Below, piece by piece: positions 37,728 to 44,669 of a stretch of DNA of 64,000 bases. The first letter of the stretch is position 1. Each line of letters opens with the position of its first letter. The DNA comes from a bacterium. GTDB lineage: Bacteria > Electryoneota > Electryoneia > Electryoneales > Electryoneaceae. Both the position numbers and the translations under genes were made by a program. The DNA lies in assembly GCA_963675295.2 (NCBI GenBank), contig CAXXKJ010000002.1, positions 384,001-448,000 on the forward strand, read 5' to 3'. The notes under the pieces were generated by a model, which made no database searches, was not told where the DNA came from, and worked only from the letters and a program-made list of their open reading frames with translations.

Positions 37728-37840
37728 TGTTGTTGAAAGACCTCTGTCTCTCTGGCGTTTGCTTGGTACGTTCCCGACATTATCCGGTTGAAGATTGAAC
37801 CAGGTTTCACAAGAACTTTGGATCAGACACGGAGGGAGCG

Positions 37841-38776
37841 ATGGTACGCAAGATCACCGTGATCGGTGGTGGGTATGTCGGCGAGCATGTGGCGCAAGGC
37901 TTGATGCTGCAGGAATTGGCGCAGGAAGTGGTGTTGATCGACGTGATCGAGGACATGCCGCAGGGCAAGGGTCTCGACCAGCGTCAGAGCGCGCCGGTAT
38001 GGGGCAAGGACACGAAGGTAACCGGCACGAATGACTGGGCCGACACCAAGGGCTCGGACATTGTGATCCACACCGCCGGCCGTCCGCGCAAGCCGGGGAT
38101 GAGCCGTGACGATCTGCTCGAGGCGAATGTCGCGATCGTTCGTCCGTGCATGGAACAGGTGAAAGCGCAGAGCCCGGACGCGACCGTGATCATGGTTGCG
38201 AACCCGTTGGACGCGATGACCTACGTCGCGAAGCAGACGTTGGGCTTCCCGAAGAACCGCATCTTCGGTATGGCGGGTATTCTCGACACCGCGCGTTTCC
38301 GTGCGTTCATCGCGATGGAAACCGGCGTCAGCGTGCGCGACATCCAGGCGATGGTTCTCGGTGGGCACGGCGACACGATGGTTCCGCTGCCGCGTTTCAC
38401 CACGATTGCCGGCCTGCCGCTGGAAAACTGGGTCAGCAAGGACAAGATCGACGCCATGGTCGAACGTGCGGCCAAGGGCGGCGGTGAAATCGTCAAGCTG
38501 CTGAAGTTCGGTTCGGCCTACTATGCTCCGTCCGCGGGCGCGGTCGAAATGGCGGAAGCGATCGTCAAGAACAGCCGTCGCGTGCTGCCGTGCTGCGCGT
38601 TCCTCGAAGGGGAATACAAGCACGAAGGCATCTACATGGGCGTGCCGGTGATCGTTGGCGAGAATGGCGTCGAAAAGATCATCGAGTATCCGTTCAACGA
38701 CGAGGAACAGGCGATGTTCGACAAGTCCGTCGAAGCCACCAAGGGCCTGCTCGAAGATGTGAAGAAGTTCCTCTGA
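37841..38776 (+). CDS. mdh: Malate dehydrogenase (LDH-like)
   Basis: IGGGYVG, RKPGMSRDDL, ANPLDAM, LDTARF, GGHGD, SAYYAP. Confidence 0.96.
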   Translation: MVRKITVIGGGYVGEHVAQGLMLQELAQEVVLIDVIEDMPQGKGLDQRQSAPVWGKDTKVTGTNDWADTKGSDIVIHTAGRPRKPGMSRDDLLEANVAIVRPCMEQVKAQSPDATVIMVANPLDAMTYVAKQTLGFPKNRIFGMAGILDTARFRAFIAMETGVSVRDIQAMVLGGHGDTMVPLPRFTTIAGLPLENWVSKDKIDAMVERAAKGGGEIVKLLKFGSAYYAPSAGAVEMAEAIVKNSRRVLPCCAFLEGEYKHEGIYMGVPVIVGENGVEKIIEYPFNDEEQAMFDKSVEATKGLLEDVKKFL

Positions 38777-39835
38777 GGAACAGCAGCTGTGAGCTCTGAG
38801 CTTTGAGCTGTGAGCAACAGACTTATCCAGGGACACGTTGGCGACAATGTGTCCCTGTTTCTTTGCCTGGTTTGCGTTACGGAGTGGTTTTTTTGCGGGG
38901 CTGACGGAGTCTTTCAACTCTGGTCTTCCGTCTCTTGGAACTGCAGCAATGAGTTTCCTTGCTTCGCTCAGGATGATGTCTGAAGAATCGATTGACGGGC
39001 AGTGTTCTGGTAGCGAAACACGAGCAGATCCAGGTTTCGAACACGGGTTCAATGCCGCTGGTTGTTCTCTGTTTGCGAGTGCGTCGAGTCCGCGTCCGCA
39101 AGCGGACACGGGCACATCATTCGGACGGAGATAGCGGACAAAGCCAGCGTGCGCGGAGGAATAGCCGTGTTTGCGGCGGGAGATCAGTTCGGGGTAGACT
39201 AGGCGAGGCGGTTCGGGACGTGGGCCGCGCAACCCCCTGTTCCAGCCTCCGCCGGGTCCGCCGGGCCCATGGCCGGGTTTGTAGTGCCGGCGGGGCTTGC
39301 GTGGCGGACGCTTGAGACGGCCATATGGGTCAAGCAGCTCGCGTGGGACGGGCTGGCCGGTATCGTCGTACAGGATCGGGCAGGGCCGCAGCGGCTGGAT
39401 GTTTTCCTTGACCTTATAGGTGCCTCGTCGAACACCGGTGGGCAGGCCGGGACGGTCCTCGGAGGGGCCTCGGGGTGGTTTGGTCGAACGGGTCCGGTGA
39501 AAGCTGCGGTTGGGATCAAAGATAGATCCTGCTTCGGGCTCGGGACGCTGGGTTCGGTGGGATTGCGGACGGCGGGTTACAGGAAGTCTTTCCGGGCTTT
39601 CCAACGCTAGCGATTGAGGTTCAGGCGGATGATCCGCAGTAGCACGTTTTACCTCGCAGGCATCATCGGGTGTCTGGACAGAGGTCATGCGTTCCGAGAT
39701 ACAAAGGATGTGCCGGATAAGGCGCAACAGAGTGGGCAGCAGGTGTGGGGTGCGGGCGATGAAACGCATGGCAGTAAAGATGTGGGTGAAATGCCGGGGT
39801 GTAACTGAGGGCAGGTCTTGGATCCGGTCGGACAC
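38777..39835 (-). CDS. Hypothetical basic Pro-rich protein, paralog A; the frame stays open antisense to mdh until 37823
   Basis: 39131-39394 encodes a domain about 66% identical (manual count) to 42121-42387, with many synonymous differences. Confidence 0.7.
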
Positions 39836-39846
39836 CGGATACGAGG

Positions 39847-39875
39847 AATGTAACTGAACAGATGTTTGATGTCAA
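39847..39875 (-). promoter_or_regulatory. Sigma70 promoter with LexA-like box in the spacer
   Basis: TTGACA-17 nt-TACATT on minus; GAAC-AGAT-GTTT at 39856-39867. Confidence 0.7.
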
Positions 39876-39911
39876 GCCTCAATTGACTGGCGTTGAAAGC
39901 CCTGACAATCT

Positions 39912-39964
39912 AGTCCGTCAACGAGACTAAGGGTCTGCTCGAAGAGGTGAAGAAGTTTTTGTAA
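39912..39964 (+). pseudogene. Diverged duplicate of the mdh 3' end
   Basis: Encodes SVNETKGLLEEVKKFL* versus SVEATKGLLEDVKKFL*; 42/53 nt identical to 38724-38776. Confidence 0.85.
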
Positions 39965-39987
39965 AGCTAAGCAATAGTTCGTACTTT

Positions 39988-40015
39988 AGGCCTGACTTGC
40001 GTCAGGCCTTTTTTG
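39988..40015 (+). terminator. Intrinsic terminator
   Basis: AGGCCTGAC-TTGC-GTCAGGCCT followed by T-tract. Confidence 0.85.
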
Positions 40016-40049
40016 ATGCTTTCAAAGCACTCTGGTCATGGGGGAGGGG

Positions 40050-40778
40050 ATGATGAGAAAGCTTTTACTCTTGATTGTATTCCTGATGTTAATACCAGGA
40101 TGTGTTTATATTGTCAGATTCCACCCAATTATAGAACCTGATAAAGCTAAAGAGATGTTATATGTAGATGGCAATGAAGTTATTTTTTCTGAAAAGGACA
40201 GCACTTCAATAGCATTATATTTGCATAAGAAAGATGAGTATGAGTTAATTTGTCACATATTATATTTCAACAAAACTGATAGTTTGTTAAATGTATTCCC
40301 AGATCACGCAAGAGTCTTCTATTACTATGATAATAGGAAAAAGATGGATTCATTATATGTATATCCAAGCGATATATATATGAAAAAAATCAGAACTATG
40401 CAGCAAATAAATAATTTTGCATTAGCGTTGAGTGCTACAGCAGCATCCTATAGTTCAAATACTACAACAACAACTACAGGGGTCATTGGTGGAGATGTGG
40501 TAAATGTTACATCAACAAGTAGTAATCCTCAAACATTTACACAATCAATGTTACAGGTCGGAAATACAATAAGATATAATAATCAAATATATGCAGCAGC
40601 AAATCTTGCAACCGAGTTAGGATTGGTAAAAAGACACACATTATGGCCAAATACATATGTAGAAGGAAATATAATCATAAAATATAAATCATCAGATAGA
40701 TACAGAGTTGAAATACCATTTGGCGATGATGTTCATATTGTTGAATTTAATGCTGAACAAGTTAGCGTCCCAGATTAG
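40050..40778 (+). CDS. Hypothetical lipoprotein in low-GC islet
   Basis: LIPGC lipobox; strongly AT-rich ORF. Confidence 0.75.
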   Translation: MMRKLLLLIVFLMLIPGCVYIVRFHPIIEPDKAKEMLYVDGNEVIFSEKDSTSIALYLHKKDEYELICHILYFNKTDSLLNVFPDHARVFYYYDNRKKMDSLYVYPSDIYMKKIRTMQQINNFALALSATAASYSSNTTTTTTGVIGGDVVNVTSTSSNPQTFTQSMLQVGNTIRYNNQIYAAANLATELGLVKRHTLWPNTYVEGNIIIKYKSSDRYRVEIPFGDDVHIVEFNAEQVSVPD

Positions 40779-40839
40779 ATAAAGGGAAACAGACGGCCGG
40801 GTGGCCCGACTTGCTTGCCAAGTCGGGTGTCATGGTTTT

Positions 40840-41094
40840 CTACCTGTATACATCCTTCCGATGCCGAATCCGTGTCACGGTCAATTCTTCTGCGCCTTCA
40901 ACATACTCGTACACCACCCGGTGTTCGCCAGCGCGGATGCGATACAGGAAATCGGCTCTCTTGAGCTTGCGGTGGTTTGTCGGGAACGGATCACTCTCGA
41001 GCGCATCAATGGCTTGGTTGACACGTTCGACGAACTGTTGTGGCAGCTTCTTGTAATCGCGTAGTGCGGCGGATGTAAACGTGATGCGTGGCAT
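40840..41094 (-). CDS. RelE/ParE family toxin
   Basis: A.RDYKKL, YRIRAGEHRVVY, IRHRKDVYR. Confidence 0.9.
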   Translation of the reverse strand: MPRITFTSAALRDYKKLPQQFVERVNQAIDALESDPFPTNHRKLKRADFLYRIRAGEHRVVYEYVEGAEELTVTRIRHRKDVYR

Positions 41095-41111
41095 GGCTCG
41101 GTCGTGTTGGT

Positions 41112-41357
41112 TCACGCTTGCCGACGGATATCCTTCCACTCGTGCCGTGCCGGATCGGCCATTGCTTTGCGTGCCGCCGCCGCATCCGCCTTATCCAGCA
41201 TCGATTCCATCAGCTCGTAATCTTCCAACGGCACCAGCACACCGGCCACCTTCCCGCGACGGTGGATCTGAACCCGCACCTTGTTGTATTCGACACGGTT
41301 GAGCACGTCCCGTAGTTCGGACCGAAGCTCACTCGCCTGCATGCGTTCGCTGTTCAT
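41112..41357 (-). CDS. Phd/YefM family antitoxin
   Basis: ASELRSELRDVLNRV..RRGK..VLVPLEDYE. Confidence 0.88.
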   Translation of the reverse strand: MNSERMQASELRSELRDVLNRVEYNKVRVQIHRRGKVAGVLVPLEDYELMESMLDKADAAAARKAMADPARHEWKDIRRQA

Positions 41358-41361
41358 GGTT

Positions 41362-41404
41362 CGTACCTCATGTACATAAAGTCAATCTCGTACGAAACGT
41401 ACAA
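41362..41404. promoter_or_regulatory. Probable TA autoregulatory operator
   Basis: Four GTAC cores (CGTACC, TGTACA, CGTACG, CGTACA) just upstream of the antitoxin. Confidence 0.55.
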
Positions 41405-41528
41405 TACACCGTCGTGGAAATCAAGCGATACTGCAACAATTGTCGTTTCACCGTCGCAAACAGGCTACGTATCAACCGTTTTCCGTGTCGTCCGTGTATT
41501 CCGTGGTTCCATTTGGGTTGCCTGCCTC

Positions 41529-41593
41529 TTGACAACCCCGTCCAGATTCCGTATCATCAACTGAACATTTGTTCTGTCCTGGAACAGATGTCT
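41529..41593 (+). promoter_or_regulatory. Sigma70 promoter with two LexA-like boxes
   Basis: TTGACA-17 nt-TATCAT; GAAC-ATTT-GTTC at 41563-41574; GAAC-AGAT-GTCT at 41582-41593. Confidence 0.75.
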
Positions 41594-41625
41594 GCCGAAA
41601 TCCCACCAACCCGCCGACCCACCGT

Positions 41626-42702
41626 ATGCCCCTCGCCGTCCCGACATACAGCCTGTATTGGTTCCGCCGTCTCGCGCATTTCTTGCGACACGCGCCGGGC
41701 ATCGGTGTGATCATCACGCTGCTGGTGCGAGTTTTCTCTGGACCTCGAGGAGGCGGCGCATTCGTCAACGGACGCGCCGACTCTACAGGGCGACTTCCCG
41801 AGCCCCAAGCCCGGAGCCCCGAGCCCGTCATGGTGCCCGTGATAAGCCGGCGTCAGCCGGTTATCGCGGATCATCCGCCCTCTGATCTTGCCCGTGTTGG
41901 CTTTGACAACGCGGCTGATCAACACGCTAACCCGTCAACCGGATCTCAACGACCACGAATCCCATTCGTGGCAGCCCCTTCACCGCCGCCCGTCGACCGC
42001 CATCCGCAGCCGGTTTGTGAGCCCCAAGCCCGGAGCCCCGAGCCCGTTGTTGTTGACTCACAACTCACCACTCATCACTCATCCCTGTCCCTACCGACCG
42101 GCCTCGAGAACGGGTTCGCCCCGCTCCGCGACCATGGCCCCATCTACGATTCCAGCGGCGAGCCGGTTCCGCCGGAACTCCTTGACGAATACGGCCGCCT
42201 CAAACGTCCCAAGCCCAAACCCCGTAAGCGTTACAAGCGGGGTCAGGGACCGGGCGGACCGGGCGGTGGTTGGAATCGAGGGATGAAGTGGACAATCAAG
42301 CCGGATCGTAACCGGCTGATCTATCCGGAGTTGATCTGGCGGGAGAAGAACGGCTACCGCTCTGCGCACGCCGGTTTCGTTCGTTACGACCATTCAAAAC
42401 GGAGACAGGCGCAGGATTTAACAGCAAATGAACAGCCACGTTCTGTATCCCCAGTTCCCACAATTGACAGGAAGGATCCAAAGTGTCACGTTACCCGGAA
42501 AACACGATCAATTCCGGATTCGAAATCCGATTCTCTGCTGACCGTTCCTGTTCCAACTCCGGTGAACGGGTCGTTAATCTCTGGATCTCCCGACGATCTT
42601 GGTGTTTGTTTAATCTTTGCTTATTATTTCACATACCCTGTACTGGCCGCCGATGACAGGACCTCCAACGCCCACAGCTGTTATTGTCTGGGAGAAACGT
42701 CC
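41626..42702 (+). CDS. Hypothetical basic Pro-rich protein, paralog B; no stop before the in-frame cytochrome gene
   Basis: Shared domain at 42121-42387. Confidence 0.7.
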
Positions 42703-44586
42703 ATGCTCCGTACCACGAGTGCCAGGCATTTGTTGATAGTTATCCTGACGTTGCCGTTGACTCTGTTCGCGCAGAACTTGCCGACAGACACCTCGTCGCT
42801 CTTCGCCGGATCGGGTGTGTGCGCGAACTGTCACTCCTCAGACGGCTCGATCATGATGGAGAACAACAAGGACATTTCGCCGCCGACCACGTGGCGGTCG
42901 TCGATGATGGCAAACGCGGCGAAGGATCCGGTGTGGCAGGCGAAGGTGATGGCGGAGAATCAGGACAATCCGGCGTTGCAGGCGATTATCGAGGACAAGT
43001 GCACAACGTGCCACGCCCCGTTGGGCCGGACGCAGGCGATATATGACGGCGCGGACGGGTACACGTTCGATGAGGCGATGGGGTCGGCGTTGGCGCTGGA
43101 TGGGGTGAGCTGCACGTTGTGTCACCAGATCCAGGCGGACAACCTCGGCACCGAAGCTAGTTATTCTGGCGGGTATGAGATCGGGGACGAACACGTAATC
43201 TACGGGCCGTACCAGAACATCTTTCCGAACCCGATGATCAACCAGTCCGGATTCACGCCGACCTACGGCGAACACATCCGCGATTCCGAACTGTGCGGCA
43301 CCTGCCACACGTTGTTCACACCCTATGTCGACAACAACGGCAACATCGCCGGTGAATTCCCGGAACAGACACCGTACCTCGAATGGGAGAACTCGGACTA
43401 TCCGGGTGAGGGGATTGAGTGCCAGACGTGTCACGTACCGGAAACAACCACGCCGCAGGACATTTCGACGATGCCGCCGTGGCACACCGAAACGCACACG
43501 CCGTTCGGCAAGCATGAACTGGCCGGCGCGAACATGACGATGCTGGGTTTGATCCAGGACAACCTGTCGGAGTTGGGGATTACCGCGACGGACGCGCAGT
43601 TTGATGAAACGCTGGGTCACACCTCGGCGATGTTGCAGCGGGCGGCGTCCCTGCATGGCAGCTACGAGCTGATCGGGGACACACTGGTGGTGGATGTCGA
43701 GGTGCGCAGCCGGACGGGGCACAAGTTGCCGACAGGGATTCCGTTGCGTCGGATGTGGCTGCACGTGACGGCGCGGGATGAGGCGGGGAACGTGTTGTTC
43801 GAGTCGGGCGAATGGGACGGCGAGGGGCGGATTCCGGATGAGGACACACCATACGAAGTTCACCGTAACCGGATCGACGCCGAGGACGAAGTGCAGATTT
43901 ACGAAGGCGTGATGGGAGATGTGGATAACGAACGGACGTGGACGCTGCTACGAGCCGGGCAGTACCTGAAGGACAACCGGATTCCGCCGCGCGGCTTCGA
44001 CATCGATCACGAGAACTATGACGACACCGGAATTTTTGGCCGTGCGCGGTTCGACCGCAATTTCAACCGTGCGACAGGTCCGCAGACGACCGGCGTGGAC
44101 ATCGTCCAGTATCGCATGCCGGCTGCGGCAACGGTCGAGATCGAACTGGTGATGCAGACGTTGAATCCGAGGTTCATCGACGATCTGCTGACCCACACCG
44201 GCGACAAGGTCGATCAGTTCGCCGGAATGTACGCGGAAGCCGGGAATGAGCCGTACCAACTGGCGGAAATCGAGATCAGCCTGAGTCCGACGCACCGGTC
44301 AACGGACAGTTCGGAACCGCCGATGCGGGCACGGAACCTGCGGGTGTATCCGAACCCGGCGAACGCGAGCTCGATACTGGGATACGAGTTGCCGTACGCG
44401 CAGCAGGTGACGTTGCAGTTGTACACGGTGAACGGGCGGTTGGTGCAGACGATCCACCAGGGTGCGCAACGGGCGGGCGAACACGCGGTGTCGTTGAACA
44501 TCAACGGGCTGTCGTCCGGGATCTACCTCGCACGGATGAGCGGGCAGACGTGGCAGGCGGCGGAGCGGTTTGTGGTGTTGAAGTAA
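42703..44586 (+). CDS. Secreted pentaheme cytochrome c with C-terminal sorting domain
   Basis: GGAG RBS and signal peptide; CANCH, CTTCH, CTLCH, CGTCH, CQTCH; DNRIPPRGF; YPNPAN C-terminal domain. Confidence 0.85.
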   Translation: MLRTTSARHLLIVILTLPLTLFAQNLPTDTSSLFAGSGVCANCHSSDGSIMMENNKDISPPTTWRSSMMANAAKDPVWQAKVMAENQDNPALQAIIEDKCTTCHAPLGRTQAIYDGADGYTFDEAMGSALALDGVSCTLCHQIQADNLGTEASYSGGYEIGDEHVIYGPYQNIFPNPMINQSGFTPTYGEHIRDSELCGTCHTLFTPYVDNNGNIAGEFPEQTPYLEWENSDYPGEGIECQTCHVPETTTPQDISTMPPWHTETHTPFGKHELAGANMTMLGLIQDNLSELGITATDAQFDETLGHTSAMLQRAASLHGSYELIGDTLVVDVEVRSRTGHKLPTGIPLRRMWLHVTARDEAGNVLFESGEWDGEGRIPDEDTPYEVHRNRIDAEDEVQIYEGVMGDVDNERTWTLLRAGQYLKDNRIPPRGFDIDHENYDDTGIFGRARFDRNFNRATGPQTTGVDIVQYRMPAAATVEIELVMQTLNPRFIDDLLTHTGDKVDQFAGMYAEAGNEPYQLAEIEISLSPTHRSTDSSEPPMRARNLRVYPNPANASSILGYELPYAQQVTLQLYTVNGRLVQTIHQGAQRAGEHAVSLNINGLSSGIYLARMSGQTWQAAERFVVLK

Positions 44587-44669
44587 GCTTGGACAGAGCG
44601 GGTATTAAACAGGGCCGGATCAGACGATCCGGCCCGTTGTGTTTCGAGTGGCGAGGTGCTGGCAAACGG

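Follow-up and report, generated by a model that had tools for sequence, protein, structure and literature searches.

Introduction

What kind of gene is carried twice, on opposite strands, within a few kilobases of a malate dehydrogenase gene (mdh) and each time within a much longer open reading frame (ORF) that obscures it? The question is raised by a 64,000-nucleotide stretch of DNA (the window; positions 384,001 to 448,000 of the forward strand of contig CAXXKJ010000002.1, assembly GCA_963675295.2) from a bacterium of the family Electryoneaceae. An initial annotation, made from the letters of the sequence alone, described at 39131-39394 (minus strand) and 42121-42387 (plus strand) of this window a divergent pair of paralogs that share a basic, proline- and glycine-containing domain and are easy to miss. 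Both are indeed hidden: the minus-strand copy (copy E) sits in a 670-aa ORF antisense to mdh, and the plus-strand copy (copy A) in a 1005-aa ORF fused to a gene for a cytochrome-like cargo protein of the type IX secretion system (T9SS). The analysis reported here suggests, with a probability of roughly 0.55, that the two genes belong to a lineage-restricted family of paralogs that LexA represses and DNA damage induces, and that the conserved domain of the family may bind nucleic acid. Three further copies, the promoter with its operator, the repeat origin of the linker and the lack of stop codons were all absent from the initial description.

Results

A family of paralogs under purifying selection

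Translation of the two stretches yields 88 and 89 residues, respectively, and the peptides are those originally described; the identity of 59 residues out of 89, first counted by hand, was reproduced by BLASTP with one gap (E 1e-21, single comparison). A six-frame search of the genome of the organism (G000; 4.8 Mb in 2 contigs) revealed five copies that are 67-100% identical to copy A, with copies B, C and D located elsewhere on the contig that carries A and E. The pair is therefore real but understates the family, which further includes a decayed sixth copy (G000:C2:1377999-1378597) that retains the promoter, the LexA-type box, the ATG, the N-terminal segment and the repeat linker, is closed by a stop codon after 179 aa and lacks the conserved domain.

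Pairwise differences among the five copies amount to 0.245, 0.204 and 0.502 at codon positions 1, 2 and 3. The ratio of nonsynonymous to synonymous substitutions (dN/dS, NG86 method) over the domain is 0.12-0.33 in 9 of the 10 paralog pairs, the A-E pair being saturated, and falls to 0.06 over the first half of the domain in orthologous copies of two congeners. The third-position excess together with the low dN/dS indicates that the conservation reflects protein-coding selection in the stated frame, as had been surmised from the many synonymous changes. An Rfam scan of 38000-43500 with E up to 1 produced no match, so the region is not a known RNA.

These values bear on the suggestion that the copies are non-functional and descend from one ancestral gene whose remnants are decaying among repeat-rich junk, with long frames that are merely GC-driven shadow ORFs. 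The copies do lie in repeat-rich intergenic DNA, their tail and linker are nearly neutral, and neighbors rich in GC at third codon positions provide open shadow frames. Such decay is nevertheless barely credible given a dN/dS of 0.06-0.33 over the domain at a dS of about 1, a promoter and operator conserved across genera, frames that in all five copies extend much further than expected by chance (probability 0.047 for each copy) and the fact that the one copy without the domain has acquired a stop. The family is genuine, new, lineage-restricted and under purifying selection.

Taxonomic range and visibility in databases

A profile built from the five copies detects the domain in 7 of the 16 genomes of the taxonomic family of the organism, which in the genome collection makes up its whole order, and in none of the 25 genomes that represent six other families of the phylum. 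The public contigs with the domain all come from metagenome-assembled genomes labelled only "bacterium". HMMER returned 3 matches among 1.84 billion protein representatives, and a cluster collection of 5.8 billion proteins contained just the fused calls of G000 itself and one relative; of the 321 pattern matches in metagenome contigs of the Joint Genome Institute (JGI), 0 were confirmed. The family is nearly invisible in protein databases because gene callers fused its members with their neighbors, giving "fusion" proteins of 986 and 760 aa.

No family had been recognized by eye, and none was found by searching: Pfam, NCBIfam, PHROGs and PADLOC do not match the family, nor does a sequence profile search of the PDB, so that neither a characterized family nor a transposase emerged from these sources. 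Foldseek against the PDB gave no fold match (best E 4.4) and a feature-based search of the ESM Atlas no usable one. A hit to the sugar-binding domain of OAA-family lectins (PF17882), at 17.6-17.8 bits against a cut-off of 20 and in one of 15 members, was rejected as chance. The loose resemblance to NUMOD3 that had been proposed for a WNRG motif is not supported, since Pfam gives no match (E up to 1, and also at 0.1) and the WNRG loop is replaced in distant members.

Anatomy and predicted fold of the domain

The alignment of 15 family members extends the conserved part a dozen residues further upstream, to an LPxG-type motif, for a total of about 100 residues. Two blocks are well kept. The first consists of an acidic helix followed by a stretch rich in lysine, arginine and proline; the second, C-terminal block is a three-stranded antiparallel sheet in an AlphaFold2 model, with strands at 84-87, 90-93 and 97-100. 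Between them, the glycine-rich WNRG loop is variable and is absent from the members of G010, G009 and G003:C6. The model, computed from the 15 sequences, has a mean predicted local distance difference test (pLDDT) score of 71, which rises to 87-92 for residues 21-40 and to 88-90 for the terminal sheet; the structure prediction called for at the outset thus gives a small three-stranded sheet unlike anything in the PDB. From the composition and this small predicted beta-sheet we infer that the domain may bind nucleic acid.

Up to the end of the domain, the ORFs encode 165-250 residues, with the basic stretch in an internal position. A basic, hydrophobic N-terminal segment, called amphipathic in the initial annotation, is visible by eye in copies A, B, C and E and in the decayed sixth copy, and it is wholly different in distant members; in copy D, an in-frame stop separates the operator from the first ATG.

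A common promoter with a LexA-type operator

All five copies are preceded by TTGACA, a 17-nt spacer and a TAnnnT hexamer (score 10-12 of 12 where scanned), and the palindrome GAAC-N4-GTTC lies on or just past this promoter; it is perfect in A, B, C and D and deviates at a single position in E. Similarity between the copies starts exactly at the -35 hexamer. The same promoter and box are found in 6 of the 8 copies of relatives with enough upstream sequence, other genera included. A stem-loop conserved in all copies was observed at the 5' end, within the first ~30 nt of the predicted transcript, where base pairing joins the operator's second half to a segment only a few bases further on and a T-rich run follows (e.g., L033 2033-2055); the scan flagged that of copy D as terminator-like, and the structure could be a 5' stabilizer or an attenuator.

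Excerpts of PMC3323433 give GAAC-N4-GTTC as the LexA motif of Gram-positive bacteria, and those of PMC7739468 and PMC8565304 give other LexA motifs for related or neighboring phyla. In G000, the box is present in the promoter of the single lexA gene. It also precedes lexA in G001 and G002, and G010 has a version with one mismatch; the search of G013 gave none, and in G003 the contig ends at the lexA upstream region. This contig end (G003:C3, L074) contains a G-run and a T-run and then what we take to be sequencing-adapter sequence, probably an assembly contamination in a public metagenome-assembled genome. Elsewhere in G000, the box stands directly before an imuB-like gene, which precedes a second gene for the DNA polymerase III alpha subunit (dnaE2), and before ogt, an AlkD-type DNA-alkylation-repair gene and a DinB-superfamily gene. 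Because the same box precedes lexA, the imuB-like gene with dnaE2, ogt and the alkylation-repair gene, the family is probably controlled by LexA and inducible by DNA damage as part of the SOS response. The earlier guess at a nucleic-acid- or ribosome-binding stress protein was accordingly half right: a link to stress is now backed by the LexA-type operator at every copy, and the specific resemblances offered are not supported.

Outside the family, LexA sites are predicted on G000:C2 at 2626815, 3585774, 249778, 3855069, 1872640 and 1805900. One predicted site in G000 lies ~200 nt upstream of a putative mraZ-like ORF (named by reading), and the best-scoring site of all has a -35 hexamer and no downstream ORF of at least 110 aa. 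G000 contains 15 strict boxes, five of which belong to the family (the one-mismatch box of copy E is uncounted) and one to the decayed copy.

Small membrane-active inhibitors, such as SulA, YneA, SidA and TisB, are common in SOS regulons, and a strong promoter placed tightly on the operator, together with a basic hydrophobic N-terminal segment in most copies of G000, would suit an SOS-induced checkpoint or toxin-like protein, for example a division inhibitor or a nucleoid-membrane tether. In such a protein, the N-terminal helix would have the membrane as its site of action, the basic domain would act on DNA, and the product would be kept unstable by the stop-less frame described below. This is quite unlikely, however: the N-terminal segment is barely constrained (dN/dS 0.64) and not shared by distant members, copy D is interrupted ahead of its first ATG, five paralogs would be unusual, and no similarity to known inhibitors was found.

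A linker built from dispersed palindromes

The proline-rich linker, originally described as unalignable, does not appear to be a protein domain: it consists of dispersed palindromic repeat DNA read in frame. Its modules occur 11-82 times each in G000 and are found in relatives as well, most of them being palindromic hairpins. The flanks of copies B and D give dozens of 30-85 nt matches scattered over the genomes of relatives. The linker and much of the sequence that follows the domain are a patchwork of elements resembling repetitive extragenic palindromic (REP) sequences. One module class is open in only one of six frames, which is the frame used in the family loci, and open frames that hold modules have a median of 47-83 codons elsewhere in G000 versus 198-1017 in family loci. 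Several distinct REP-like classes are present in G000 and shared with its congeners, with examples in the window at 39084-39120, 41881-41920 and 41800-41830.

REP elements are known together with their RAYT (REP-associated tyrosine transposase; HUH Y1) enzymes, and here as there a protein gene lies among the dispersed palindromic repeats of a genome. In contrast to that system, the repeats are inside the reading frame and fall into several classes, and the family protein lacks both an HUH and a tyrosine motif and matches no transposase in Pfam. A RAYT or IS200-IS605 transposase was rejected as a candidate: there is no match in Pfam, NCBIfam or PHROGs, and the conserved part comprises only ~100 residues.

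Reading frames that do not end

The frame of each of the five copies is closed close to the promoter, at 380-590 nt upstream, and remains open for at least 409 codons past the domain, while each of the other two frames contains 1-6 stops within the ~100-codon spacer. At a random position, frame and strand in G000, the probability of a frame open for at least 400 codons is 0.047. Across all genomes, 11 of 14 copies lie in open frames of 599-1017 codons and 2 are cut by contig ends. The next gene on the same strand is entered in frame at 5 of 6 loci (genes for T9SS cytochrome-like, ChaN-like, pirin, M20 peptidase and DUF4846 proteins), copy C reaching its glycosyltransferase-4 gene one base out of frame. 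Three further loci run codon-aligned and antisense through convergent genes, namely mdh, an aminotransferase gene and a tRNA methyltransferase gene; for copy E, the first in-frame stop is at 37823-37825 on the minus strand.

The lack of stop codons is considered a real feature, specific to GC-rich genera, because open spacers and matching frames recur in nine independent loci. Two candidate explanations were discarded. A C-terminal membrane anchor supplied by the signal peptide of the next gene was rejected as a general rule since a transmembrane-like stretch is present in just 4-5 of 12 tails, and selection on mdh for an open antisense frame was rejected as well, since 5 of the 11 genomes that lack the element also have no stop in this frame. 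In the alignments made for the phase of indels, the orthologs are highly diverged (53% identity).

ArfA of Escherichia coli and BrfA of Bacillus subtilis are, according to excerpts of PMC6881298 and the abstract of PMC10107115, made from non-stop mRNAs and held down by trans-translation. Could the family be a ribosome-rescue or ribosome-binding factor of this kind, made from a non-stop message and kept low by transfer-messenger RNA (tmRNA)? Here too, the frame reaches structured RNA without a stop codon, the protein is basic, as ArfA and BrfA are in the excerpts of PMC6881298, and a tagged, short-lived product would be expected. No in-frame stop follows the domain, stable hairpins begin within ~60 nt of its end in B, E and four copies of relatives (not in all copies, and without a T-run), and a tmRNA gene is present. 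The rescue proteins differ, however, in having a further-on stop that is lost through a defined internal terminator or cleavage site, whereas here the frame continues without a stop for more than 1 kb and the search for an internal terminator was negative; copies A, B and D lack an intrinsic terminator-like site from the domain to the end of the next gene, and the first one on the same strand after the copy-A promoter is at 44612-44635. Furthermore, the family proteins are several times larger than BrfA with its ~70 residues, their basic stretch is internal and not C-terminal, there is no similarity in sequence or fold, and five SOS-controlled copies are ill-suited to a back-up rescue factor. 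Differing in size, copy number, regulation and sequence, the family is very unlikely to serve this role.

The copy-E insertion and possible mobility

The 1.14-kb segment that contains copy E has the 3' end of mdh on either side, as a direct repeat of ~53 nt. In the congener G002, mdh leads directly into the ancestral terminator and then into a low-GC lipoprotein gene, with no insertion (L031 (G002) 1429-1529); G003 shares the copy-E insertion, and G001 keeps just 117 nt of the segment. Copies B and D, for their part, are absent from the matching sites of congeners. Flanking direct repeats were found around none of A, B, C and D, and no recombinase was found in the 1.14-kb segment, whose sole long ORF is the family gene, which matches no recombinase family. 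Given the missing repeats and recombinase, mobility of the copies is possible only. Contigs assembled from 4 public runs of one study are broken at repeats, and no excised or inverted form was seen in them. A search for RNA runs of the organism returned none.

Phage 21 and e14 integrate into the 3' end of icd and supply a substitute gene end. Copy E likewise has a version of the last ~53 nt of mdh on each side, the two having diverged, mdh stays intact and a relative shows the empty site; unlike those prophages, the segment is only 1.14 kb long, has no integrase and has four sister copies without repeats. The family gene could belong, as cargo or effector, to a small selfish integrative element, a ~1.1-kb unit of promoter and ORF that moves between gene ends and is SOS-induced like integron integrases and many prophages. 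Its basic domain would then work for the element, with hairpin DNA as one possible target, rather than for the host. Besides the empty or nearly empty mdh sites of G002 and G001, the synonymous differences peculiar to the element-side mdh end, as in the integration of e14 or phage 21 at icd, argue for such an element, as do the dispersed copies in each genome, the differing presence of B and D between congeners and the tight association of copies with REP-like repeats. Still, direct repeats flank only one of five copies, terminal repeats are absent and the similarity between copies begins at the -35 hexamer itself, the searches gave neither a recombinase or transposase nor an HUH motif, the paralogs are old (dS about 1 or more), and a single Campbell-type homologous crossover could also yield the mdh repeat. 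A selfish element is therefore a rather unlikely account of the family.

Layout of the locus

The features of the locus are listed in Table 1. The two copies were originally said to flank a lipoprotein islet and a RelE-Phd pair. Both are present, but the lipoprotein gene is not an islet: its homologue directly downstream of mdh in G002 makes it an old resident and not a fresh arrival. Instead of copy E and the lipoprotein gene, G001 has at this site a 253-aa gene with a HARE-HTH domain (L030 (G001:C25) 2014-2775), which marks the region downstream of mdh as a variable hotspot in the genus.

Table 1. Positions in the window of the two family copies, their control regions and the surrounding features
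Feature	Position	Strand	Remarks
Copy E, stop-less tail	37823-39130	-	REP-like hairpins at ~39084-39120 and 38779-38855; then antisense through all of mdh
mdh, functional 3' end	38724-38776	+	Left copy of the ~53-nt direct repeat around the copy-E insertion
Copy E, coding part	39131-39769	-	First ATG past the operator at 39769; alternative start GTG at 39835
Copy E, parts	39131-39769	-	Basic N-terminal segment and linker; LPxG motif and conserved basic domain at 39131-39445
Copy E, predicted promoter (TTGACA, 17 nt, TACATT)	39847-39875	-	One-mismatch GAAC-N4-GTTC box at 39856-39867, between the hexamers
mdh 3'-end remnant, displaced	39912-39964	+	85% identical over 46 nt; right side of the copy-E insertion
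Ancestral mdh terminator	39988-40009	+	Just past the displaced mdh remnant
Lipoprotein-like gene	40038-40778	+	Context, not family; no Pfam match; ~30-33% GC versus 58% GC in the genome
ParE/RelE-family toxin and Phd/YefM antitoxin genes	40840-41357	-	Context, not family
Copy A, predicted promoter (TTGACA, 17 nt, TATCAT; 11 of 12)	41529-41574	+	Perfect GAAC-N4-GTTC box at 41563-41574
Copy A, coding part	41626-42393	+	ATG at 41626; LPxG motif and domain at 42085-42393, preceded by a basic/hydrophobic N-terminal segment and the linker
Copy A, REP-like modules of the linker	~41800-41830, 41881-41920, 42019-42047	+
Copy A, stop-less spacer, unique sequence	42394-42756	+	No stop in frame 0, 5 and 3 in the others; next gene entered in frame
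Multihaem-cytochrome-like T9SS cargo gene	42757-44586	+	In frame with copy A

Discussion

The reading preferred here is that of a family of LexA-repressed, damage-induced genes with a common plan. Each starts with a near-consensus sigma-70 promoter and a predicted LexA operator that overlaps it or directly follows, then a 5' stem-loop formed from the second half of the operator, an ATG and a short basic hydrophobic N-terminal segment. A poorly constrained proline-rich linker, colonized by REP-like palindromes yet always in an open frame, leads to the ~100-residue domain, composed of the LPxG motif, a short acidic helix, the lysine-, arginine- and proline-rich stretch, a variable glycine-rich loop and the three-stranded sheet. 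On induction, ribosomes would move behind the polymerase across the hairpin-rich tail until the message ends or the next gene is reached. Any domain produced in this way would carry a long junk extension or come from a non-stop message, and the product would consequently be short-lived.

It is tempting, although doubtful, to go a step further and regard these SOS effector genes as stop-less by design. After LexA cleavage, coupled transcription and translation would then proceed from the first ATG through the REP hairpins to the end of the message or into the neighboring gene, and the putative DNA-binding domain would exist only as part of a nascent, tmRNA-tagged or junk-extended chain that is rapidly cleared.

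Several observations weigh against these proposals. The recA gene of G000 has no box, and the lexA box ranks below the top 40 sites of a matrix trained on family sites. The predicted fold is tiny and unmatched, so "nucleic-acid binding" stands on composition. The N-terminal segment and the linker are nearly neutral between orthologs (dN/dS 0.64-0.77), which makes a weak case for their role as protein. The G010 copy stops 105 residues past the domain and the database protein P0003 after ~140, so the stop-less feature is not universal. Part of it, moreover, comes cheaply, since 7 of 13 genomes, among them the element-free ones noted above, have no stop in the codon-aligned antisense frame of mdh. 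Finally, the read-through part of copy C shows a dN/dS far above 1 at a dS near 0 and is thus not selected as protein.

Among the closest described parallels is the LexA regulon of B. subtilis and other Gram-positive bacteria, with which the family has in common the GAAC-N4-GTTC consensus, the place of the box on or just after the -10 hexamer of a strong promoter, and a box that recurs at lexA itself and at an error-prone polymerase cassette. The host differs in belonging to an uncultured lineage with type IX secretion, and the family protein comes as five paralogs per genome and has no relative among described SOS proteins. The literature on LexA and SOS in connection with REP elements or ORFs and on SOS boxes in Bacteroidetes and Balneolaeota revealed no such family, although the supplementary regulon tables of PMC8565304 and PMC7739468 might list relatives.

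If the preferred reading is right, an unknown effector family would be added to the SOS response of an uncultured lineage, and by the count of strong operators (6 of 15 strict boxes, the decayed copy included) it would form the largest block of the predicted regulon. The merging of its genes into "fusion" proteins exposes a blind spot of annotation. No described counterpart was found for the architecture, in which genes are open from the start of transcription through repeat hairpins into their neighbors, and it bears on the interplay of DNA-damage signaling, transcription-translation coupling and trans-translation. Should the genes prove stop-less by design, they would represent a new way to time-limit a DNA-damage effector, or to tether it in cis, and would directly couple the SOS response with ribosome rescue, as well as with expression of the neighbor gene of each copy.

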